A stretch of DNA of 63,605 nt, filler included. It is 5 parts of 5 records of this genome, joined end to end, with 100 filler letters (N's around TTAATTAATTAA, not from the genome) between each part and the next. Parts side by side here need not be neighbours in the genome. Positions count along the whole stretch, not along the records: positions 10,292 to 22,048 come from DRR723986_9905; 4 more parts are not named here. One strand, written 5' to 3'. Shown here piece by piece: positions 10,192 to 45,966 of the stretch. The position numbers and the translations under genes were made by a program. Every line of letters starts with the position of its first letter. Within the stretch, counting starts at the first letter, position 1. The notes under the pieces were generated by a model. It worked only from the letters and a program-made list of their open reading frames with translations. It did not search any database and had not been told where the DNA came from.

Positions 10192-10291
10192 NNNNNNNNN
10201 NNNNNNNNNNNNNNNNNNNNNNNNNNNNNNNNNNNTTAATTAATTAANNNNNNNNNNNNNNNNNNNNNNNNNNNNNNNNNNNNNNNNNNNN
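10192..10291. other. Artificial contig spacer
   Basis: N-run, TTAATTAATTAA (stops in all frames), N-run. Confidence 0.99.
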
Positions 10292-17058: not shown

Positions 17059-18358
17059 ACTTGGCCTCCGGACCGGCGCACTCAGCCCGCAAATCAGACA
17101 GGCGTACATCAACCGCACGCGCATGCCCTTCCAGCTGTTCGGCGCGTGCCATAGTTGCCACAGCCGGGCTTATCGCCAACAGTCCCTGCCCACTTAATTG
17201 CTGAAACGTGATATTCTTGACAAAACTTTCCAACGAGACTCCCGCGCAGGCGCGCGCCGCACCATTGGTTGGCAAACTATGGTTTGTGCCGGACGCATAG
17301 TCTCCGGCACTTTCACAACTGTATGGACCGACAAATACACTCCCAGCGTTTTTAACATTGTACACCCAGCTTTCAGCATCGGCACAGTTCAAAATCAAGT
17401 GTTCCGGAGCGTAGAGGTTGCTAAACTCCATCGCAGTACTTAGTGATTCAAATGCGACGGCACGGCTGTTTAGGAGTGCCTGGCTCGCAATGTCTCGCCG
17501 CGGTAAGTCTTTCAGTTGACGCACGAGAGCTGAGTTAACTTCCTGCAGAACACTGCGACTGTCGCTCAGCAGCAGTACTTGTGAATCCGGTCCGTGTTCA
17601 GCCTGGCTGAGCAGGTCAGCGGCTACGAACTCAGGCTTGGCACCGGCATCAGCAATGATCAGAACTTCACTTGGGCCGGCGGGCATATCGATTGCCAGTC
17701 CTTCGAGCTGGACGAGTAGTTTTGCGAGCGTCACGTACTGATTTCCCGGCCCGAATATTTTATCAACCGCTGTTATCTCTCCTGCTCCATAGGCCATAGC
17801 GCCAATTGCCTGCGCGCCGCCGACTGTAAAGATTTGTTTAATTCCCAGGCGGCCGGCCGTGTACAGAATCGCCGGATCAACACTTCCGTCAGGTCGCGGC
17901 GGTGTGCACACTATAATTTCGCGGCAGCCCGCCAGGGTTGCCGGTACTGCTAACATCAGCAGCGTTGAAAATAGAGGCGCACTGCCACCGGGAATATATA
18001 GGCCAACCCGCTCTATAGCGGTCGTGCGCCGCCAGCACTTAACTCCGGGCATTGTCTCAATTACGGACTCGGAGCCCCGCTGCGCGGCGTGAAAGCGCTC
18101 GATGTTGCTTCGGGCAATTTCGATTGCCGTGCGCAATCCGGCATTTAGCTGAGCGCCGTCGGTTGAAGTCTTAAGACTGAAGTCTTTTAAGTCGACATTG
18201 TCATACTTGCGGCTGTAGTAGCGCAGAGCTTCTACGCCCCTTGACTTAACATTTTCAAGAATTTCACTTACGCGCGTACGCGCATTCTTAGACAGGGCCG
18301 GGCGCCGAATCAGTTCCGACCAGTCGGCCCGCAGCGGATTGGTGATTATTTGTAACAT
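17051..18358 (-). CDS. hisD: Histidinol dehydrogenase
   Basis: GLYIPGG, GPGNQYV, IDMPAGPSE, SQAEHG, GDYASGTNH. Confidence 0.97.
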   Translation of the reverse strand: MLQIITNPLRADWSELIRRPALSKNARTRVSEILENVKSRGVEALRYYSRKYDNVDLKDFSLKTSTDGAQLNAGLRTAIEIARSNIERFHAAQRGSESVIETMPGVKCWRRTTAIERVGLYIPGGSAPLFSTLLMLAVPATLAGCREIIVCTPPRPDGSVDPAILYTAGRLGIKQIFTVGGAQAIGAMAYGAGEITAVDKIFGPGNQYVTLAKLLVQLEGLAIDMPAGPSEVLIIADAGAKPEFVAADLLSQAEHGPDSQVLLLSDSRSVLQEVNSALVRQLKDLPRRDIASQALLNSRAVAFESLSTAMEFSNLYAPEHLILNCADAESWVYNVKNAGSVFVGPYSCESAGDYASGTNHSLPTNGAARACAGVSLESFVKNITFQQLSGQGLLAISPAVATMARAEQLEGHARAVDVRLSDLRAECAGPEAKYV

Positions 18359-19212
18359 TAGACCACCATCTTTTCAATTGGACTGACAAGAATCCCCTGC
18401 GCACCGGCCTGTTTTAGGCCTTCAATCAATGTCCAGAAGTCGTCTTCAGGTACAACACTGTGCAGGCTACTCCAGCCGCTGCGCGCAAGTGCTACGATCG
18501 TGGGACTGTATATTCCGGGCAACATGTCACAAATTTGTGCGAGCGCTGAATCTGGAGCGTTTAAGCGAATGTACTTGTTGCGCCGCGCCTGTGCCACAGC
18601 ATTGATGCGCAGTATTAGCATATCGAGCACAGTACGTTTGGCGGCGGAGAGCTGCGGAGCGTTAATTAACACAGCCTGGCTATAACAGACCGTTTCAACC
18701 TCGCACAGGCCATTGGTCAGCAGTGTACTTCCACTACTGACGATATCACAGATACCGTCGGCCAGGCCGATTCCCGGGGCAATTTCGACGCTGCCGCTGA
18801 TCTCTTCGATTTCGGCATTAACGCCCTGCTCACTCAGGAATTCACGTAGGATGTTGGGATAACTGGTGGCGATTTTGCGGCCTTCAAACCAGCTCAGACC
18901 AGTGTAGGACTCCTCGCGACGCACCGCCAGCGCCAGACGGCATTTACCAAAATCGAGTTCTGCCGCGGTTGTGACGGACTTAACACTTTCACAGAGGACA
19001 TCCCGCCCCACAATGCCACAGTCTACCACACCGTCACTGACATACTGCGGAATGTCGTCATCGCGCAGATACAGGAACTCCAGTGGGAAGTTAATTGCAT
19101 CGGACTTGAGCGCACCGTCACTGCTGCGTCGTATCCCGCAAGAATCAAATAGAGATTGGCTTGCCTGGCTAAGCCGCCCGGATTTTTGGAGTGCAATACG
19201 TAATCGTTGCAT
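18358..19212 (-). CDS. hisG: ATP phosphoribosyltransferase (long form)
   Basis: LRIALQKSGRL, LRDDDIP, IATSYP, GSVEIAP, PIEKMV. ATG 19212 or GTG 19233 are possible starts. Confidence 0.95.
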   Translation of the reverse strand: MQRLRIALQKSGRLSQASQSLFDSCGIRRSSDGALKSDAINFPLEFLYLRDDDIPQYVSDGVVDCGIVGRDVLCESVKSVTTAAELDFGKCRLALAVRREESYTGLSWFEGRKIATSYPNILREFLSEQGVNAEIEEISGSVEIAPGIGLADGICDIVSSGSTLLTNGLCEVETVCYSQAVLINAPQLSAAKRTVLDMLILRINAVAQARRNKYIRLNAPDSALAQICDMLPGIYSPTIVALARSGWSSLHSVVPEDDFWTLIEGLKQAGAQGILVSPIEKMVV

Positions 19213-19249
19213 GGCCTCGCTTGATGCGTCCACGCGAACCAGAGGGCAT

Positions 19250-19282: not shown

Positions 19283-19314
19283 AGAAATTGTGCGAAATTT
19301 TAGCTCAAATCACA

Positions 19315-19386
19315 TCATATCCACCACGCCTGTGAGAACAGGTATGCATGTACATGATGACGATGATATTTCGGCGCTGTAAACAT
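19315..19386 (-). CDS. hisL: His operon leader peptide MFTAPKYHRHHVHAYLFSQAWWI (23 aa)
   Basis: Manually translated. Four His codons in HRHHVH, directly upstream of the terminator and hisG; absent from the ORF track. Confidence 0.82.
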   Translation of the reverse strand: MFTAPKYHRHHVHAYLFSQAWWI

Positions 19387-19393
19387 TGGATGC

Positions 19394-19422
19394 AACTTAA
19401 CGGGACTTTTGGACCTGCGCAA
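19394..19422 (-). promoter_or_regulatory. Putative sigma70 promoter of the his leader
   Basis: TTGCGC-N17-TAAGTT preceded by an A-rich tract; the -10 ends 7 nt before the leader ATG. Confidence 0.6.
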
Positions 19423-19499
19423 GTATTTTTTGATTTCAGAGAATTTTTGTCGCTGTGGCTGCGGTCTCCGGATCTTGGCAATGACAGAAGCTCTTCAGA

Positions 19500-20093
19500 C
19501 TAGCAACTCCCACGATGACATGCTCCAGAATTGACATTGCGTTCATCCGCTTTCCTTTCAGTGTACTCCATGATACTTCCCTTGCCACCCTGTGTTATCT
19601 CACAGCAAGTAGTAAACATATCTCTGATCTTTTTACGGCCGCGCTGGATTTTAGAACGCACAGTAACGTAGTTCATTCCGAGCTGGGCGGCAATCTCCTT
19701 TTGCGGAATGTCTTCAATCTCAGACAGCAGCATGATTGTACGATAATCCTCGGGCAGTTGATTGATATAGGGAACAACACATTCACTTAGCTGCCGCACG
19801 GCATCAGCTTCAGTTGGATAGTCGGCATCCGTCTGCATATCTTGTAAGGAGTCGGCAACATCTTCAGAGTCAAGACTTTCAGCTTGTGTCTTGCGAGTGC
19901 GGTAGTAGTCTGTAATAGTATTCCTGGCTATGGTGTAGAGCCAACTTTTAACATTTCTGACTTCGGCGACATCGTACTTCGCCAGTTTGTAGAATACATC
20001 CTGCGTCAAATCTTCCGCGTCTTCCGTGCTGTTAACGCGATTCTTAACGTAGTAAAACAAGGGGTTATACAACTGGGTGATTTGTGTTTCCAT
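19500..20093 (-). CDS. sigZ: ECF sigma factor, SigZ-like, with Cys-containing C-terminal extension
   Basis: DAEDLTQDVF, SWLYTIARN..DYYR (region 2); LPEDYR..QKEIA..KIQRGR (region 4); tail TTCCE...GACHRGSC. Confidence 0.8.
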   Translation of the reverse strand: METQITQLYNPLFYYVKNRVNSTEDAEDLTQDVFYKLAKYDVAEVRNVKSWLYTIARNTITDYYRTRKTQAESLDSEDVADSLQDMQTDADYPTEADAVRQLSECVVPYINQLPEDYRTIMLLSEIEDIPQKEIAAQLGMNYVTVRSKIQRGRKKIRDMFTTCCEITQGGKGSIMEYTERKADERNVNSGACHRGSC

Positions 20094-20221
20094 AGTGACT
20101 CAGTACACCTGGTAATTTTCGCAGCTACACGAAGTGCAGGTTGACAAATGCGCTCGATCTTTCAGTGTTCGCAACATCTACCGCTGACAATTTACACTTT
20201 TCACCGAAACATCGTCAAATC

Positions 20222-20270
20222 AAAAAAAACGCGAACAAACAGCTTCCCAGACTGGGAAACTGTTTGTGTT
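20222..20270 (-). terminator. Intrinsic terminator downstream of the Cys-rich microprotein
   Basis: Minus strand reads ACAAACAGTTTCCCA-GTC-TGGGAAGCTGTTTGT, then TCGCG and T8. Confidence 0.7.
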
Positions 20271-20308
20271 TCAAACTTGCGTGAGACTATTACTCCTGCG
20301 GGGCAGGT

Positions 20309-20446
20309 TTAACAGCAGCACTCACACTCACTTTCGGCGCAACATTCGCTCTCGCAGCAGGACGAAGTGTCTTGCATGCCGGCATCCGAAGCCGCCGTAT
20401 AAGTGTTGGCATATCCTGCAGTTGGTTTCAGTGTTGTCAGATTCAT
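20309..20446 (-). CDS. Unannotated 45-aa Cys/Glu-rich microprotein MNLTTLKPTAGYANTYTAASDAGMQDTSSCCESECCAESECECCC
   Basis: Manually translated. GGAG lies 9 nt before the ATG; 8 Cys in the last 16 aa; own promoter motif and terminator. An alternative in-frame ATG is at 20473. Confidence 0.72.
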   Translation of the reverse strand: MNLTTLKPTAGYANTYTAASDAGMQDTSSCCESECCAESECECCC

Positions 20447-20503
20447 TGTGTTGTTCTCCAGTCTTGAATTCATACGTGTAATAGTTTCCTACTCTCACCT
20501 ACT

Positions 20504-20531
20504 AAGACGTTAGCTTGTGAAAATGATGCAC
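20504..20531 (-). promoter_or_regulatory. ECF-type promoter motif, copy 1 (upstream of microprotein)
   Basis: Minus strand GTGCATCATTTTC-N9-CGTCTT, i.e. TGCATC-N15-CGTC. Confidence 0.7.
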
Positions 20532-20542
20532 TTTGCAGTTTG

Positions 20543-21859
20543 TTAACAGCAGCCGGACGCAACGCTAGTCTCTGATTCAGAAGCACAACAGCTGGTACTG
20601 ATCGTCAGTTGAGAGCTGCACACACCAGTTTCCGGCAGGTTTAACTCTACATTTTTGGCGGCTTCAATGTCACCGTCTAAATGCGCAACAATTGATCGTA
20701 CTTGCTCATAACCAGTTGCCATCAGGAATGTAGGCGCGCGCCCATAACTCTTGGATCCAACTATATAGAAGTTTTCCTCAGGGTGCCTTAGCTCTTTTTC
20801 GCCATGCGGCCGCACGGTTCCACAGCTGTGAATATTTGGGTCGATGAGCTCTGCGAGCTCAGCAACTGACTCAATCGAAGAATCAATATTTGTGCGTATT
20901 TCGCGAATCATTTCCAGATCGGGTCTTGAGCCGGTGTTACTTATGATTTCGTCGATGCTTTCAATTTGATGAGGCAGGCCATCCAACTCGCCTTCAACTC
21001 GAATTCCCTTGGGACCTGTCTCCAGCTTTAGAATATGCAAAGGAGTGAACACCTGCAACTTGCCACTGTTAACAAGTTCTTTTATCTGGACTCCCAGAGC
21101 ACCGCGAGCTTCCAGCGCGTCGTCTGCGCCGCCGCCATAGACAGTGCTCATATCACGTTTGCGCAACACCCAGTGTAATCGCGTTTGCGGATGACTTTTT
21201 TGTAGCTCGGCCAGGTCCAGCAAAACGTTAACTGCTGAGTGTCCGCTACCTACAACCAGAACACGTTTGTTTTTGTAACGCTCCAGCTGATCGTGTTTAA
21301 CATCTGGTATTCCATACACAATGTGCTCACGCGCTTCCAGCTCTCCGGCGGCGTACATTCCGCCTGAGCCGATCGGGTTGGGCTGATTCCAGGTACCGGA
21401 CGCGTCGAGTATCGCTCGTGCCTCATAGTAGCGAATCCCTTCGGGGGTGCGCACGGTTATGTTAAATGGCTTGGTGGCCCTACCCGCAGTCTTAACTTTA
21501 TCGAGCCCTTTACGACCAACCGACAGCACCTTTGTGTTTAAGTGAATATTGGGCCGAATCAAGGGATGTTCCGCCAGGGGACGAAAATACTGATCCAGCA
21601 ATTCTTGTCCGGTCGGCAAAACACCTGGGTCGGGCGCAGTCCAACTTGTCGTACTGAGTAGTTCCGCAGCGGCTTTATCGATGTTGTATTTCCATGGAGA
21701 AAACACCCTCACGTGTGCCCAGGAATTGATGTTTCCGGCAACAGTTTGCGCCATATCAAACAGGTGAAACGGAATTCCGCGTTTCGCTAAATGCGCCGCA
21801 GCGGCGAGTCCTACTGGTCCAGCACCGATTATGGCTATCGGCAAGTTTCTATTATTCAT
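20543..21859 (-). CDS. FAD/NAD(P)-dependent oxidoreductase (flavin monooxygenase-like) with Cys-rich tail
   Basis: GAGPVG (FAD), DASGTW, VGSGHSA (NAD(P)), IDPNIHSCGTVRPHG, KSYGRAPTFL, LPETGVC..SCC..GCC. Confidence 0.85.
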   Translation of the reverse strand: MNNRNLPIAIIGAGPVGLAAAAHLAKRGIPFHLFDMAQTVAGNINSWAHVRVFSPWKYNIDKAAAELLSTTSWTAPDPGVLPTGQELLDQYFRPLAEHPLIRPNIHLNTKVLSVGRKGLDKVKTAGRATKPFNITVRTPEGIRYYEARAILDASGTWNQPNPIGSGGMYAAGELEAREHIVYGIPDVKHDQLERYKNKRVLVVGSGHSAVNVLLDLAELQKSHPQTRLHWVLRKRDMSTVYGGGADDALEARGALGVQIKELVNSGKLQVFTPLHILKLETGPKGIRVEGELDGLPHQIESIDEIISNTGSRPDLEMIREIRTNIDSSIESVAELAELIDPNIHSCGTVRPHGEKELRHPEENFYIVGSKSYGRAPTFLMATGYEQVRSIVAHLDGDIEAAKNVELNLPETGVCSSQLTISTSCCASESETSVASGCC

Positions 21860-21904
21860 ATTCAGTTCGTTCCACGAATTTCAGATTTCAGTTCAGTGCC
21901 AACA

Positions 21905-21932
21905 AAGACGAAGTAGTGCGAAAATGATGCAC
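21905..21932 (-). promoter_or_regulatory. ECF-type promoter motif, copy 2 (upstream of flavoprotein)
   Basis: Minus strand GTGCATCATTTTC-N9-CGTCTT, same conserved blocks and spacing as copy 1. Confidence 0.7.
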
Positions 21933-22048: not shown

Positions 22049-22148
22049 NNNNNNNNNNNNNNNNNNNNNNNNNNNNNNNNNNNNNNNNNNNNTTAATTAA
22101 TTAANNNNNNNNNNNNNNNNNNNNNNNNNNNNNNNNNNNNNNNNNNNN
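22049..22148. other. Artificial contig spacer
   Basis: N-run, TTAATTAATTAA, N-run. Confidence 0.99.
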
Positions 22149-22177: not shown

Positions 22178-25100
22178 CACTCTTGATGCCCTGGCGATCG
22201 AACGCGTCGTGGGTGGAGGGGTCGGTGAGGTACGCCGAGTACAGGAAAGCGAAAAACGAGTGTGGCGAGATGCGCTGCGTGGCCATGCGGAAGAGGCGCC
22301 GCGCGGCCTTGGAGGCGGGGGTGTCGCCCGCGGAGGACACGCCGGACGAGGCCGCGCGCACAAAGTCCGACTCGGCAGCAGTCGCCTTGGACCGGAACAC
22401 GCGGTGGGTCAGCGCGCTGACGGTCACCGCGGCCTGGACCTGCTCGTCGAGACCCAGCATCTCCCGAAGCGACCCCGTGTCCAGCTCCCTGTTCCCGCGC
22501 ACCTTCTCGATGTAGTAGCCGGCCATCTCCCCGTCGAGCGCGGCCTCCTTCAGCGACGCCTCGTCCTTGGCAATGTCCAGTTGCAGCTTCACGGCCTGCT
22601 GCAACTCGGCGTTCCTTCCCCCCTTGTCCTTCTGCGACGCGAGGGACTCGGAGATGCTGGTGAGGATCTTTGCCATGGCATGCCGCGCCTGCTTGTTGAG
22701 CGGGCTTCCGCTCTCGCACGAGGACTTGTCCGAGGGATCGAACAGCGCCGTGCACAGCGCCTTGGTGGAGATGTGCTCCCGGCTCACCGACGACGAGCTG
22801 GACGACGCCAAAGAGAACTCCTGCACGTCGCAACAACAACAAACAACACCAAAAAAAAAAATGGCGCTTTCAGAGCTGGACCAACAACAAAACAACAGAC
22901 CAAGGAGGACAAGTTGGCGGCGGCGGGGGGGGGGGCAGCACCTCAAAGTGTCCCATGAGGCGGTCGAGCAGGTCGCGTGACGTCTTGGGCAGCTTGTCGC
23001 GGTCGTTGTTGAACAGGGCCTGCGAGACCTCGTTGACGGAGAGGATACCGTCCCTGTTGGGGTCGAGCTGGTACATCATGCTCTGCACGCTGGCGCGCTG
23101 GTTAGGGTTGCTGGACCCAACGATCTTGAAGAACATGGCGCGGTAGAGCTGCGACAGCTTGCTGACGCGCTCCGGGTCGGTGAGGCGAACGTAGTTGGCC
23201 CCGTGCGAATCCGGCAAGGCCTGGCGGAACGCGTCGTACAAGCGGCCCCTGCTCTCCAAGGGGACGTTGGACAGGAACTTCATCACGTTGACGGGGGACG
23301 AGAACACCTTCTTGAGCAAGCCCGTGAACAGCGGGGTGAACTTGTTGGGCTTGGCGCAGTACGGAGAGTTCATCCAGTCGTAGAAAAACTTGGTGGGGTC
23401 GTTCACCACGGCCTCGGCCGCGGCCACGCGCAGCGCCGTGACGCGCCGGTCCACCTCGTCCTTCGAGATGCGGTCCGTGCCGCTGGCCAGGTTGGATATC
23501 AGCCTCCGCACGGGGAGCTCGCCGGCAAGGCGAGGGAACGGGATGTTGGGCAGCTCAAAGGCGCTCGACTGCACGTCCAGGGCATCGGAAATCTTTGCCG
23601 CGCGGTCGTCCGCCCCGCTCAGGCAGTCCGCCGACTCCTCCTTGCACTGTTCCATGAGCTCGCTATCCGTGCCTGCCCACAGGCAATCCCAGTCGCAGTC
23701 GCAGTCGCAGTCGCGGTGGGTGTGGATTGGAAAAAAACCAAACAAGGAGAAGCACGCGTCAGGCGCGCAACACGCACCTTCCGCCTCTGCACTCTTCTTG
23801 CCCTGAACACAGGCGAGCACCTTGCCCTCGCACACGCTCCGGAGGCCGGCCAACAGGCCCTTCTTCAGCTCGCCAGGGGGGACGGCGGGTCCTGCAACGA
23901 GCAATGGTCCAACCAAGACGACGCGGTCAGCACACGCGACAAACGAACCACAGCAACTACCCCCTGGCGTTGCCACACACAAACGCACCCCCTGGAAGCG
24001 GCTTGGCCTCGCGCTTGTCGAGCTCCTTTTGGAGGAGGTGGCGGAACGCCCGGAAAGCCTTGACGTCGGTGGCCACGTCCCGGCTCGGGTCGTCCGAGTC
24101 AAGCAGTTTGGACACGTCCACTCGGTCCTGGGGCAGCCCCGCGATCACGCCGCTCATGTCCGCCCTGCGCAACAGTGGGGACAGTGCCTCCACGGCGGAC
24201 TCTGCCAACAAAGCGGCGTTGGCCTTGCAGGCCAGCTCGGGGCACTCCTTGACGTAGGCGCGCTTCAGCAAGCCCAGGGCCTCCTCCGGGGACAACACCA
24301 CCTCTTTGGACCGCTCTGGCAACAACCAAAAATAAAAAAAAGGGGGGGAAGGCACGGTTCGCAAAGGGGGTGGTGCTGGTGAAAAGCAAGGGGGGAGGAA
24401 CAGGTGAACGCACTCATGTCCTGCTCGTGCGAGTGTGCCAAGCGTTGCACAAAGTGGGAAACGGCAGCAACCTCGTCCTCGACTTCGTCCTTGCCCAGCA
24501 GGGCGCGCAGTTCAACGGCGCCCAAGGAACCGCTGTCCTTGTCGAGCGCCTCCATGATGTCGTCACGCGACCACGTTTGATGGTCAAAGTTGATCAGCAT
24601 CTCGAACAGGCTCATCAGCTGCGTTGCTCTAGGGGCCGCACGCGTGTCAAACCACGCGCGCGCATTGTTCGTTTCCTGCGCACGGAGCACGAAAAGCAAA
24701 AGGGGGGAGGGGTGAGGACGAGCAAAAAAGAAACAAGCGCTGGTTTGTGTGTGGGGGGGAGGGAGAAAGCGCGCCTGTGGGCTGATTTCCCCGTCCTTGT
24801 CGCTGTCGAAGAACCTGACGATCAGGTTGAAGCTGGCGCCCTTGTCGCCCCGCACGATGGCGCGCATGAGCTTCTCGACGTTGATGCTGTACTGCGAGCC
24901 GAAGCCGGTGAGGATGGCCTCTGCGATGGACTGCGCCGCGGTGGGCATGACGGACTGCTTGGCGTTGTGGTGCACCTCGGCCACGACGTCCTGCACCTCG
25001 GACAGGGAAATGCCGCCGCTCCCGTCCTTGTCCAGCGCGGTGCTGATCTGCTGCGGCTGGACGAAGAAGCTCATCAGGGTGGAGAAGAGGGGCAGCGCGA

Positions 25101-27327
25101 CGTGCAGGGCGCCGTGCTCGTTGAACGACTTGAGCAGGTGGGTGGCAAAGTCCTTCAGCGTCACCTTTTCCGTGGGGGCGACGGCCGCCTTGAACGCGGC
25201 GTAGTCCCCCACGGCGCCTTCCTTGCACAGCCCGTCGCACAGGCGCTCCATGGTGTTGGCGCCGGCGAGCACGGTCATCGGGTCGTCCACCTCGGCGTCC
25301 CGCTCGAACTTTGCCAGGAGCGACGCGGGGAACACCTTGAGCTCCATCACGAGCGTCAGCGCCTCCCACAGCGGGTCGGGGCGGTCGGCCAGCAGGCTGG
25401 CGACCTGCCCGAACGACACCATCACCACCTCCGACGCGAGCGCCTCCCCGCACACCTCCTCCTGGGCCCTGGGGTCCGCCTCGCACTGGGAGGGGGAGCA
25501 GTACGCGTCGAGCTTCTCGCCGAGCCTCTTGCGCGCGTCGCAGCACGGCACGAAGAGCTGGTTGGAGACGTGGAGCAGGTACAGCGCGTGCTGCACGTGC
25601 GAGGGGACGGGCGTGTAGCGCTTCAGGTCGCTGATGATGTTGCCCTCGTGGTCGAGGCCGTCCCCGTAGAGGACGAGCGCGAGCTCGCGCACGGTGAGGC
25701 GCCCGTCCTGGTTGATGTCGAGGTCGTGCGCGGTGAGCTCGCCGTCCACGGCGCGCGTGAACTTGTGCTTGGAGGAGCCGATGAAGTAGCGCAGCACGTC
25801 CACGGGGACCACGTTCGGCACGACCTCGTCCTCCTTCTTGGTCGCGAACGCGCGCACGAACCTTTCCACGCTGACCACAGAGTTGAACAGCCTTCGCCAC
25901 TCGACCGCGACCGGGCCCTGGGCGGCGTCGAAGATCACGGCGATGTCCTCCAGCGTGACCCACCCGTCGCCGTCCGCGTCGAGCGCCGAACGGAGCTGCG
26001 AGCTCTCGGCCTCCAGCGCTCCGCCGAAGCCGGTGAGCGCGTGCTCGGCCGTGCGCCTGCTGACCCCCAGCTCCCTCACCACCTCAGACGCGGTGACGAT
26101 GCCCGAGTCGTCCTCGTCGAGCAGCCTGCGCAGCCTCGTGGCGGGGATGTGCGCCGCGTCCTCGCCGATCCTGCGCGCCACCTCGCGCGTGGTGACCACG
26201 CCGTCGTTGTCCGGGTCCAAGCGCTTCCGCGCGACGTCCACGTGCCCGAAGATGCGCAGCCGGCCCAGGTCGCTCTGGCGCGACACCTGGTCGTCGCGCG
26301 ACACGGTCTCGAAGAAGGAGAACGCGCTGTTCAGGTCCTTGCGCAGGCGCTGGAAGTTGGTGGAGTAGTGCGTGAACATGCACTTGCGGTCGCGGGGGCC
26401 CTTCCACGTGGGGAGCTGCGTGAAGAAGCGCATGTCCAGCTCGAGCCGCGGCGGCACGGTGAGCTCCAGCTTGCCCACCAGCCCCGACGTCCACTCGTCC
26501 ACGAAGGGGAGGTCCGACATCCACCGCGCCGCCGCGTCGACCTCCTCCTGCGACACGATCCCGTCCTTGTCCAGGTCGAACAGCTCGCTCGCGATGTTCT
26601 CCAACGAGACGTAGCCGTCCTGGTCCACGTCAAAGTGCGCCGCCAGCTCCCGCGCGTCGATGATGCCGTTGTGGTCCTGGTCCACCATGCTGAACCACCG
26701 CTTCGCCGCCTCCACCTCTTCCCGCGAGAGCTCTTCGTTGCCGTCCAGGTCGAACATGGCCATCACCTCCTGCTCGCTCAGCTCCGCGTCGCCCTCGTGG
26801 TCGAACGCGTCCATGAACTCGCTGATCTTGACCAGCCCGTCCCCGTTCTCGTTCGGGCGGTCGATCACCCGGCACACGGGCGCTGCGTGGAGGGAGAGAG
26901 GGAGGGTTTGTGGCGCGATTCGGTCGGGCAGTCACGCAATCACACAAGCACAACACGCGCACAGAGCGCAGCGCGCAGCAAAAAGCAATTCCGGGCTCAC
27001 GTGCTGCCAACGCGGTCTCTGCCTCTGCAAAGCCCTTCTTCTGCTGTTCTTCGGGCAGGGGTTCGTCCAAAGAGTCCACTGCGTTGGAAGCGGCCGTGAC
27101 GTTGAGTGCGGGGTCAAACGCAAGGGAGGGGGGGGGGAATTACTCACGTTCGTCGTACATGTACCGCACGCCCTGGAACACTGCCTCCCCGGCAAGCGAG
27201 GCCACAGCACCACTGACCACCGTTTGTGCAACATCGGACCTGTCCGGACTGAGCTTGTCAAGGCCGTGCGCGACCATCACACCCGTGCCGGCCCCGACGA
27301 GACCAGAGAGCAGAGTCTTCGACAAGC
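22178..27327 (-). CDS. Eukaryotic spliced multi-EF-hand protein, partial at both ends. Predicted exons: 27327-27148, 27078-27001, 26882-24775, 24675-24414, 24315-23989, 23891-23778, 23672-22942, 22820-22178
   Basis: Donors GTGAGT, GTGAGC, GCGCGC, GTGCGT (x3) and GTGCTG; pyrimidine/low-complexity introns ending in CAG. The junctions keep one open frame of about 1480 codons with about 13 DxDxDG-type loops. The last donor at 22177 is less certain. Confidence 0.8.
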
Positions 27328-27383: not shown

Positions 27384-27483
27384 NNNNNNNNNNNNNNNNN
27401 NNNNNNNNNNNNNNNNNNNNNNNNNNNTTAATTAATTAANNNNNNNNNNNNNNNNNNNNNNNNNNNNNNNNNNNNNNNNNNNN
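27384..27483. other. Artificial contig spacer
   Basis: N-run, TTAATTAATTAA, N-run. Confidence 0.99.
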
Positions 27484-45866: not shown

Positions 45867-45966
45867 NNNNNNNNNNNNNNNNNNNNNNNNNNNNNNNNNN
45901 NNNNNNNNNNTTAATTAATTAANNNNNNNNNNNNNNNNNNNNNNNNNNNNNNNNNNNNNNNNNNNN
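45867..45966. other. Artificial contig spacer
   Basis: N-run, TTAATTAATTAA, N-run. Confidence 0.99.

Follow-up and report, generated by a model that had tools for sequence, protein, structure and literature searches.

Which signal could call on three neighbouring genes whose products all end in clusters of cysteines, when one of the three encodes an extracytoplasmic function (ECF) sigma factor? The question is raised by positions 19500 to 21932 of the stretch of DNA analysed here (the window, 63,605 nucleotides), where genes for a flavoprotein, a 54-residue microprotein and a sigma factor lie side by side. An earlier note, made from the letters of this DNA, had described three co-oriented genes with cysteine-tailed products; all three were confirmed on the minus strand, together with their cysteine clusters. 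With some reserve, the reading favoured here is that a sigma factor of the SigZ/ECF238 type controls a conserved regulon, of which this locus is a compact form and which most likely responds to trivalent species of arsenic or antimony, be it As(III), Sb(III) or organoarsenicals such as methylarsenite. The features on which the argument depends are listed below.

21907..21931, minus strand: promoter box P1, an exact match to TGCATC-N15-CGTC, with its CGTC end 47 nt upstream of the flavoprotein start codon
20543..21859, minus strand: flavoprotein gene, open reading frame (ORF) for 438 residues, probably of the ArsV family
20506..20530, minus strand: promoter box P2, an exact match to TGCATC-N15-CGTC, with its CGTC end 32 nt upstream of the microprotein start codon
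20309..20473, minus strand: microprotein gene, ORF for 54 residues
20235..20267, minus strand: hairpin like an intrinsic terminator, with 15 pairs and a T run behind them, directly 3' of the microprotein gene
20189..20218, minus strand: sigma-70-like promoter, TTGACG-18-TAAATT, by consensus match only, about 95 nt upstream of the sigma factor start
19500..20093, minus strand: ECF sigma factor gene, SigZ/ECF238-like, 197 residues, from ORF, Pfam and NCBIfam
18358-19233: hisG, which flanks the sigma factor gene

The sigma factor, its relatives and its promoter

The earlier note had proposed a search for the same arrangement in relatives. In a pattern scan of one genome per species, 481 stretches were found to encode relatives of the flavoprotein, and the best 80 loci, a set biased towards close relatives of the window flavoprotein, were analysed. 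In 58 of them a co-oriented gene for a SigZ-like sigma factor accompanies the flavoprotein gene, at a distance of at most 3.5 kb on its downstream side or 1.5 kb on its upstream side. The 22 loci without one include 13 from Bacillota, and several of the others are short contigs that end before the expected place of the sigma factor gene. A gene for a major facilitator superfamily (MFS) transporter directly follows the flavoprotein gene, likewise in 58 of the 80 loci. Wherever both the MFS and the sigma factor gene are present (47 of 47), the sigma factor ORF overlaps or abuts the MFS ORF, so that the sigma factor of these relatives is part of the flavoprotein transcript. The window order of flavoprotein, peptide and sigma factor with no MFS gene recurs in three loci (L014, L020 and L027). 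The term 'self-contained', which had been applied to the module, suits the window but not the 47 relatives with both of these genes, in which the MFS gene stands between the flavoprotein and sigma factor genes.

The sigma factor has the Pfam domains Sigma70_r2 (residues 5-68) and Sigma70_r4_2 (residues 109-156) and neither region 1 nor region 3, which is the architecture of an ECF factor. SigZ models are its best NCBIfam matches and cover it up to residue 181-183, in line with its earlier description as SigZ-like, though it scores 153.7 bits against a cut-off of 212 for NF007215 and 142.1 bits against 168.65 for TIGR02959; because both scores lie below the cut-off, it is regarded as SigZ-like and not as a SigZ equivalog. 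Its database relatives are at most 61% identical to it; the named ones are all Bacteroidota, and several are called SigZ by their source. Five cysteines are present, at positions 105, 163, 164, 192 and 197. The first of these, at the start of sigma-4, is the only one outside the tail, while C163 and C164 directly follow sigma-4 and the C-terminal 33-34 or so residues beyond this pair carry C192 and C197. Among 57 aligned sigma factors (that of the window and 56 from related loci), C105 and C163 are each kept in 56, C164 in all 57 and the C192 column in 49.

In the parts of PMC7826278 and PMC8999054 covered here, group ECF238 is described as uniting the former ECF24 and ECF44, and as having a C-terminal extension, rich in cysteine and about 20 residues long, and no anti-sigma factor. 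According to the same parts, its members are thought to switch by direct binding of a ligand, CorE2 is activated by Cd and Zn through its C-terminal extension, Bacillus subtilis SigZ is a member, and the linker bears a CxC motif only in the CorE-like minority (former ECF44). Judged by this group description and by the NCBIfam SigZ models, the window sigma factor is a SigZ/ECF238-type factor. It resembles CorE, CorE2 and the group, as portrayed in those parts, in consisting of sigma-2 and sigma-4 only, in its short cysteine-rich extension and in having no anti-sigma factor. It differs from CorE in that no CxC linker motif was found in it (C105 being the only cysteine outside the tail), in its predicted targets, which include a flavoprotein of an arsenic-operon family and not Cu or Cd/Zn export, and in its partner, a peptide with pairs of vicinal cysteines (CC). 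No study of any member of this branch of sigma factors was found in the literature covered.

That no anti-sigma gene lies between the module genes had been noted before and agrees with what was seen. None was found between or beside them, the sigma factor gene being flanked by the microprotein gene and hisG, although no dedicated search for anti-sigma domains was made in every small ORF. The conserved clusters of neighbours in the 80 related loci are MFS, peptide and regulon genes, and no other cluster of this kind was found. An ORF of 58 residues downstream of the sigma factor gene (19305-19481, minus strand) was considered as an anti-sigma gene and rejected: its product matches no family, has no H-x3-C-x2-C motif and has no conserved counterpart.

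Two of the genes had been said to share an ECF-style promoter, and the counts uphold this. The sequence TGCATC-N15-CGTC occurs exactly twice in the 63.6-kb window, both times on the minus strand, where 0.26 copies are expected and 2 of 100 shuffled sequences reached two. P2 lies inside the 69-bp gap after the flavoprotein stop codon, and the two copies have flanking bases in common (GTGCATCATTTTC...CGTCTT). In the 1,061,678 bp of the 80 loci the strict box was found 104 times, against about 2 expected from its ten fixed bases on both strands, with 103 of these copies on the gene strand; the motif is kept in relatives along with the gene order. Both window copies fit the consensus of those 103 sites, TGCATCATTTT-n3-A-n6-CGTCTT. 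Of the 58 sigma loci, 49 have the strict box somewhere, and in 42 it precedes the flavoprotein start by 30-300 nt; in the 13 Bacillota loci, which lack the sigma factor, it is absent. Several loci with no strict box have more divergent sigma factors and carry TGCGTC-TTTTT...CGTCTT instead, also before the sigma factor gene, a variant seen by eye and only partly captured by the count. Upstream of the window's own sigma factor gene no box of the SigZ type (TGCATC or TGCGTC, N15, CGTC) was found. Because box and sigma factor occur together, and because the -35 element varies along with the sigma factor subgroup, there is good indirect evidence that TGCATC-N15-CGTC is the sigma factor's own promoter.

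Genes other than those of the module are also preceded by the box. In marine Flavobacteriia these encode a second flavoprotein paralogue, a secreted cysteine-rich protein, a class I/II aminotransferase and a rhodanese. The secreted protein (147-178 residues) has a cysteine-rich N-terminal part and a conserved TSGC.PSSCRGAKTKFGEAKV, and belongs to no Pfam or NCBIfam family. It is encoded at L001:10678-11234, L015:7140-7731, L042:11302-11842 and six more loci, and a gene for a 337-residue membrane protein often comes next. At a locus from Cyclobacteriaceae the box precedes a gene (L006:10124-10917, plus strand) for a protein of 244 residues with a cysteine motif of the 4Fe-4S ferredoxin type, which suggests that an electron-transfer subunit of a molybdoenzyme belongs to the regulon.

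The flavoprotein and its setting in arsenic operons

Matches to Pfam Pyr_redox_3 (E 9e-15), NAD_binding_8 and Pyr_redox_2 identify the flavoprotein as one that binds two dinucleotides, flavin adenine dinucleotide (FAD) and NAD(P)H, and its G12/G14/G17 and G204/G206 motifs are invariant among 26 aligned homologues. Of its six cysteines, C346 lies within HSCGTVRPHG and the other five (414, 424, 425, 437 and 438) are among the last 25 residues. Both HSCGTVRPHG and the tail, LPETGVC..CC..CC, are invariant or nearly so in the same 26 sequences, which makes the C-terminal cysteine arm a property of the whole family. The family is very large, with at least 8000 matches at E 0.001 (all 8000 scored); the closest relatives, up to 71% identical, are Bacteroidota wherever they are named.

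The best sequence match in the PDB is a thioredoxin reductase (TrxR)-like protein (E 2e-5), and no close structure has been solved. An AlphaFold model built from the 26-sequence alignment had a mean pLDDT (predicted local distance difference test) of 68.6 and was poor at residues 310-353, around C346, and at 411-438, the tail; the tail and the peptide are both predicted to be disordered. All Foldseek matches belong to the class of flavoproteins that bind two dinucleotides; at the top were the bacillithiol disulfide reductase YpdA/Bdr (E 8e-16), thioredoxin reductases along with TrxR-like ferredoxin reductases, and N-hydroxylating monooxygenases. Their TM-scores are low (0.24-0.42), and the N-hydroxylating monooxygenases score almost as high as the reductases. 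Since the model is moderate, and uninformative around C346 and the tail, the search yields a fold class only.

These structural neighbours, together with the rhodanese and the aminotransferase found behind the same box in relatives, make a redox role plausible. The module would then be a regulon for thiol/disulfide or reactive-sulfur stress, in which oxidation of the vicinal cysteines makes the sigma factor active, the flavoprotein is an NAD(P)H-dependent disulfide or persulfide reductase with a mobile CC arm, and the peptide is a redox substrate or buffer. The TrxR-like sequence match and a weak match to NCBIfam YpdA point in the same direction, and the terminal GCC/GCCG of the flavoprotein presumably resembles the redox-active tail of large thioredoxin reductases. 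We nevertheless consider this account unlikely, as the TM-scores are low and hardly separate reductases from N-hydroxylases, and as it leaves the arsenic-operon context of the family, set out below, unexplained. It is partly compatible with a response to arsenic, because arsenic detoxification and thiol redox overlap.

The arsenic link comes from the neighbours of the flavoprotein gene. When the neighbours in the 80 loci were clustered and representatives scanned, ArsR was found in 22 loci, thioredoxin-type ArsC in 18, an ArsN1-like acetyltransferase in 18, and Acr3 and ArsB in 10 each. All 13 Bacillota loci have at least one of ArsR, ArsB/Acr3 and ArsC, with ArsR directly upstream of the flavoprotein in nine, and genes for ArsR, ArsC or Acr3 are found no more than 7 kb away from 10 of the 58 sigma loci. 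A plasmid collection contained 155 records with the flavoprotein family, of which four annotated regions were examined, with the following gene orders.

Bacillus cereus plasmid: ArsR, flavoprotein, hypothetical protein, ArsO-like protein, ArsN1
Ensifer adhaerens plasmid: ArsR, flavoprotein (50% identity), ArsK (NF033733, 513 bits), adjoining arsenite oxidase genes
Streptomyces plasmid: ArsR, hypothetical protein, flavoprotein, ArsK-like MFS transporter
Paenibacillus urinalis plasmid: MarR, flavoprotein (56% identity), near ArsN1, TrxB, ArsR and an arsenic transporter

As annotated, the B. cereus flavoprotein (L081:7911-9296, plus strand) has an additional N-terminal stretch that also contains a CC pair. 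The family was thus found in arsenic operons of at least four phyla, beside ArsR, ArsK, ArsC, Acr3 and ArsN1, and no czc, cop or mer genes stood beside the flavoprotein in the annotated regions examined. The regulator is exchanged between phyla: Bacteroidota have a SigZ-like sigma factor where Bacillota, Proteobacteria and Actinobacteria have ArsR or MarR. The proposal that the sigma factor acts in place of ArsR-type control is a fair reading, because the same flavoprotein family stands under ArsR or MarR in the arsenic islands of other phyla.

A published family fits this setting. In the part of the ArsV study covered (bioRxiv 10.1101/2021.08.12.456183), ArsV is a flavin monooxygenase that gives resistance to MAs(III), Rox(III) and Sb(III), marR is placed upstream of arsV in Paenibacillus and other genera, and MarR_ars senses As(III)/Sb(III) through Cys36, Cys37 and Cys157, that is through a vicinal pair and a third cysteine. 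Reviews, as excerpted from PMC10080717, have ArsV oxidise methylarsenite and ArsW, ArsP or ArsK export products or substrates. The order of MarR and flavoprotein genes in P. urinalis agrees with the marR-arsV arrangement in the excerpted Paenibacillus report. An ArsR or MarR_ars gene together with an efflux permease gene, as expected next to ArsV in an ars operon, was found in relatives and not on the window contig. It is quite probable that the flavoprotein family is the published ArsV family, an assignment that rests on synteny.

Cassettes of ArsV with ArsK or ArsW under ArsR or MarR_ars resemble the module in that the flavoprotein family stands behind ArsR and before ArsK, or behind MarR, and in that relatives of the window pair the enzyme with an MFS transporter. 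They differ in that the regulator here would be a sigma factor, an activator, instead of a repressor, in the added CC-peptide gene, in the window's want of a transporter and in the Bacteroidota MFS protein, which is not ArsK. ArsO (NF040505), like the window flavoprotein, binds two dinucleotides and belongs to ars operons. The window protein reached 48.1 bits against the ArsO cut-off of 425, over residues 8-223 only, and the two families are taken as distinct because an ArsO-like gene adjoins the flavoprotein gene in the B. cereus and Streptomyces cassettes. ArsZ was considered as another identity of the flavoprotein, but the positions that we take to be those of its catalytic cysteines do not seem to fit.

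The same architecture could instead serve another soft metal (Cd, Zn, Cu or Hg), as it does in CorE and CorE2, with the peptide as a metallothionein-like buffer and the flavoprotein engaged in metal/thiol redox. The only ECF238-type sigma factors characterised in the parts of PMC8999054 and PMC7826278 covered do respond to Cu or Cd/Zn through the cysteine-rich extension, the window contig has no ars gene, and the regulons of the marine relatives contain secreted cysteine-rich proteins and no canonical ars genes. This explanation is nonetheless thought improbable. The flavoprotein family is embedded in arsenic operons and not among czc, cop or mer genes in the regions examined, the sigma factor is without the CxC linker that marks CorE-like factors in the available part of PMC8999054, and the peptide matches no metallothionein family in Pfam or NCBIfam.

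Cysteine-pair peptides

The microprotein has eight cysteines, all in its last 16 residues (39, 40, 44, 45, 50, 52, 53 and 54), in the pattern CC, CC, C, CCC. Searched against Pfam and NCBIfam at E values up to 0.1, it matched no family, including no metallothionein or ArsD model. Vicinal cysteine pairs of ArsD are ligands of As(III) and Sb(III). The likeness of the microprotein to ArsD and to the cysteine triads of ArsR and MarR_ars is chemical only, lying in the vicinal cysteines, with no relationship of sequence or family.

Counterparts in the related loci were defined as ORFs of 35-100 residues with at least two CC pairs and at least 8% cysteine, not hydrophobic, within 4 kb and outside the flavoprotein frame. 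Of the 58 sigma loci, 49 have such a mini-ORF on the gene strand, immediately behind either the flavoprotein gene or the sigma factor gene; the 13 Bacillota loci have none. Among the nine sigma loci that lack a mini-ORF by this rule, two or more have a candidate that narrowly fails it. For 28 of the 49 mini-ORFs the strict box precedes the chosen ATG by 5-120 nt, so the small cysteine-rich ORFs for which the earlier note had suggested a scan do recur at the same place behind the same promoter. An alignment of the peptides from 28 relatives has three invariant CC columns and an almost invariant QPxDG. The core motif of the class is CC-x-QPxDG-x2-CC, in which Q, P, D and G are each at least 90% conserved. 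A profile made from this alignment found 51 clusters among 1.84 billion representatives, 36 of them at E 1e-10 or better and all of 49-177 residues; two of the relatives' peptides, when scanned, belonged to no Pfam or NCBIfam family. The three CC pairs of the window peptide align with the three invariant columns, and its gene is, as in the class, a short ORF with at least three CC pairs, behind a box of the SigZ type and adjoining the flavoprotein and sigma factor genes. From its position and cysteine spacing, the window peptide is best regarded as a compact analogue of this class, which is real though mostly unannotated.

A natural fusion bears on the nature of this class. In Dawidia cretensis (L056:8132-8434, plus strand) the cysteine tail of the flavoprotein runs in frame into the core of the peptide, whose N-terminal part is absent; in a sister species (L058) flavoprotein and peptide are encoded by separate genes. 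To judge by the sequences, the CC-pair peptide looks like a free-standing copy of the flavoprotein's cysteine arm.

The 54-codon ORF might be non-coding, P2 making a non-coding or leader transcript and the run of cysteines having arisen by chance; the sequence is short and of low complexity, and has no word-search homologue, no family and no usable Atlas match. This is very unlikely in view of its own conserved box 32 nt upstream, the terminator-like hairpin right after the ORF, the mini-ORFs at the equivalent place in 49 of 58 sigma loci, the 51 clusters found by profile and the alignment of its three CC pairs. The peptide might also be the precursor of a ribosomal natural product, to be modified by the flavoprotein and exported by the MFS protein of relatives. 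A small peptide gene beside a flavoenzyme and an MFS transporter would suit such a pathway, as would one subgroup of the peptides, in which a conserved N-terminal stretch (M-E-T..IPVLQKSK) precedes the cysteine-rich core. The flavoprotein, however, occurs with no peptide in the 13 Bacillota loci and in the plasmid cassettes examined; it bears the same CC arm itself, and in the L056 fusion the peptide core has no leader. No gene for a protease, a cyclase or another maturation enzyme is conserved nearby in the 80 loci, and regulation by ArsR or MarR points to detoxification, so that a natural product is the least credible of the explanations considered.

The small hypothetical protein encoded after the B. 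cereus flavoprotein was considered as a counterpart of the CC-pair peptide and rejected, as it is not cysteine-rich. In three loci with the gene order sigma factor, flavoprotein, MFS, another cysteine-rich mini-protein with a signal-peptide-like N-terminus is encoded between the sigma factor and flavoprotein genes, behind the TGCGTC variant of the box (L066:6655-6828, L076:6674-6847 and L078:898-1149, plus strand).

Proposed working, its weight and its meaning

The arsenic and antimony reading implies the following course of events. The sigma factor gene would be transcribed from its own housekeeping-type promoter, and its product, as CorE2 and the CC-plus-C site of MarR_ars suggest by analogy, would become active only when C105, C163/C164 and one or two cysteines of the tail bind a thiol-seeking metalloid. 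The metalloid-bound factor would direct RNA polymerase to TGCATC-N15-CGTC promoters, of which, in the window, one would drive the flavoprotein gene and the other that of the 54-residue peptide. Capture of the metalloid would fall to the flexible cysteine arm of the flavoprotein (C414, CC424/425 and CC437/438), and this enzyme, using NAD(P)H and FAD, would oxidise the metalloid from the trivalent to a less toxic pentavalent form. The peptide, in effect a free-standing cysteine arm, would either act as a buffer for the metalloid or pass it on to the enzyme. Relatives would add an MFS exporter and, by placing the sigma factor in the same transcript, positive feedback; the window has neither.

A bolder form of this proposal, put forward tentatively and held to be somewhat less probable than its opposite, is that this is the first sigma factor to sense arsenic or antimony directly, a triad or tetrad of cysteines (C105, the vicinal pair and the tail) binding the metalloid and thereby licensing promoter recognition. 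The CC-pair peptide would in that case be a new arsenic carrier to the cysteine arm of the enzyme, a substrate shuttle that has been fused to it in one genome. No arsenic-linked ECF sigma factor was found in the full-text literature covered, which leaves out most subscription journals.

Several observations weigh against a response to arsenic and antimony. No canonical ars gene was found on the window contig, where the neighbours are the his operon and a glutaminase gene. The ECF238 members characterised in the available parts of PMC8999054 and PMC7826278 sense Cu, Cd or Zn and not arsenic. The assignment to ArsV comes from gene order, and ArsK was ruled out by NCBIfam and BLAST as the identity of the Bacteroidota MFS protein. 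The modelled fold of the flavoprotein matches disulfide and TrxR-like reductases as well as N-hydroxylases, so that an oxidase is not indicated by the fold. The box-preceded genes of marine Flavobacteriia have no known role with arsenic. The microprotein shares words with no homologue in a word search and has no usable match in the Atlas; it also lacks the QPxDG of the class (CCAE-SECECC at the aligned place), for which reason it is either an analogue or a very divergent member.

The setting of the module in the window is limited by the way the stretch was put together. The window is composed of five contigs of differing G+C content, chained by four N44-TTAATTAATTAA-N44 linkers (10192-10291, 22049-22148, 27384-27483 and 45867-45966), with a jump in G+C content from about 0.50 to 0.58-0.65 across them. 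Gene order read across a linker therefore has no meaning, and the pieces may come from different organisms. The module contig is 10292-22048 only. Only 189 bp of it lie upstream of the flavoprotein gene, whose context on that side is therefore missing, and it contains a glutaminase gene and a complete his operon, followed by the sigma factor, peptide and flavoprotein genes; an Rfam search of it found no RNA family. Between the sigma factor gene and hisG, a 35-codon ORF (19315-19422, minus strand) with the histidine-rich run YHRHHVH could encode the leader peptide of the his operon. The glutaminase of the same contig (10359-11900, minus strand, 513 residues) has an N-terminal EF-hand_14 domain and C-terminal ankyrin repeats, a layout better known from animal kidney-type glutaminase. 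Elsewhere in the window, on a contig of 61-65% G+C, an ORF of 870 residues (24265-26877, minus strand) has many calcium-binding EF-hand motifs; unlike the module contig, this one has very long ORFs on both strands.

The earlier note had called the module undescribed, which goes too far: the ECF238 class has been described, and the flavoprotein is probably a member of the ArsV family. The module would be a variant of two kinds of system already known, a ligand-sensing sigma factor of the ECF238 type and a detoxification cassette of the ArsV type.

To our knowledge, every bacterial arsenic sensor that has been studied well is a repressor, either of the ArsR/SmtB family or, as found more recently, MarR_ars. 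If the proposal is true, the detoxification genes of this regulon are activated by a sigma factor and not derepressed, which would give a widespread resistance trait a different control logic, and the large, almost unstudied SigZ/ECF238 group would gain a second class of ligand. The CC-pair peptides, mostly missed by gene callers, could be simple metalloid-binding modules, and, as a single-protein activator whose promoter is defined, the sigma factor is a candidate component of arsenic or antimony biosensors. The conserved TGCATC-N15-CGTC makes the regulon predictable from sequence, and points to further cysteine-rich proteins in marine Bacteroidota.

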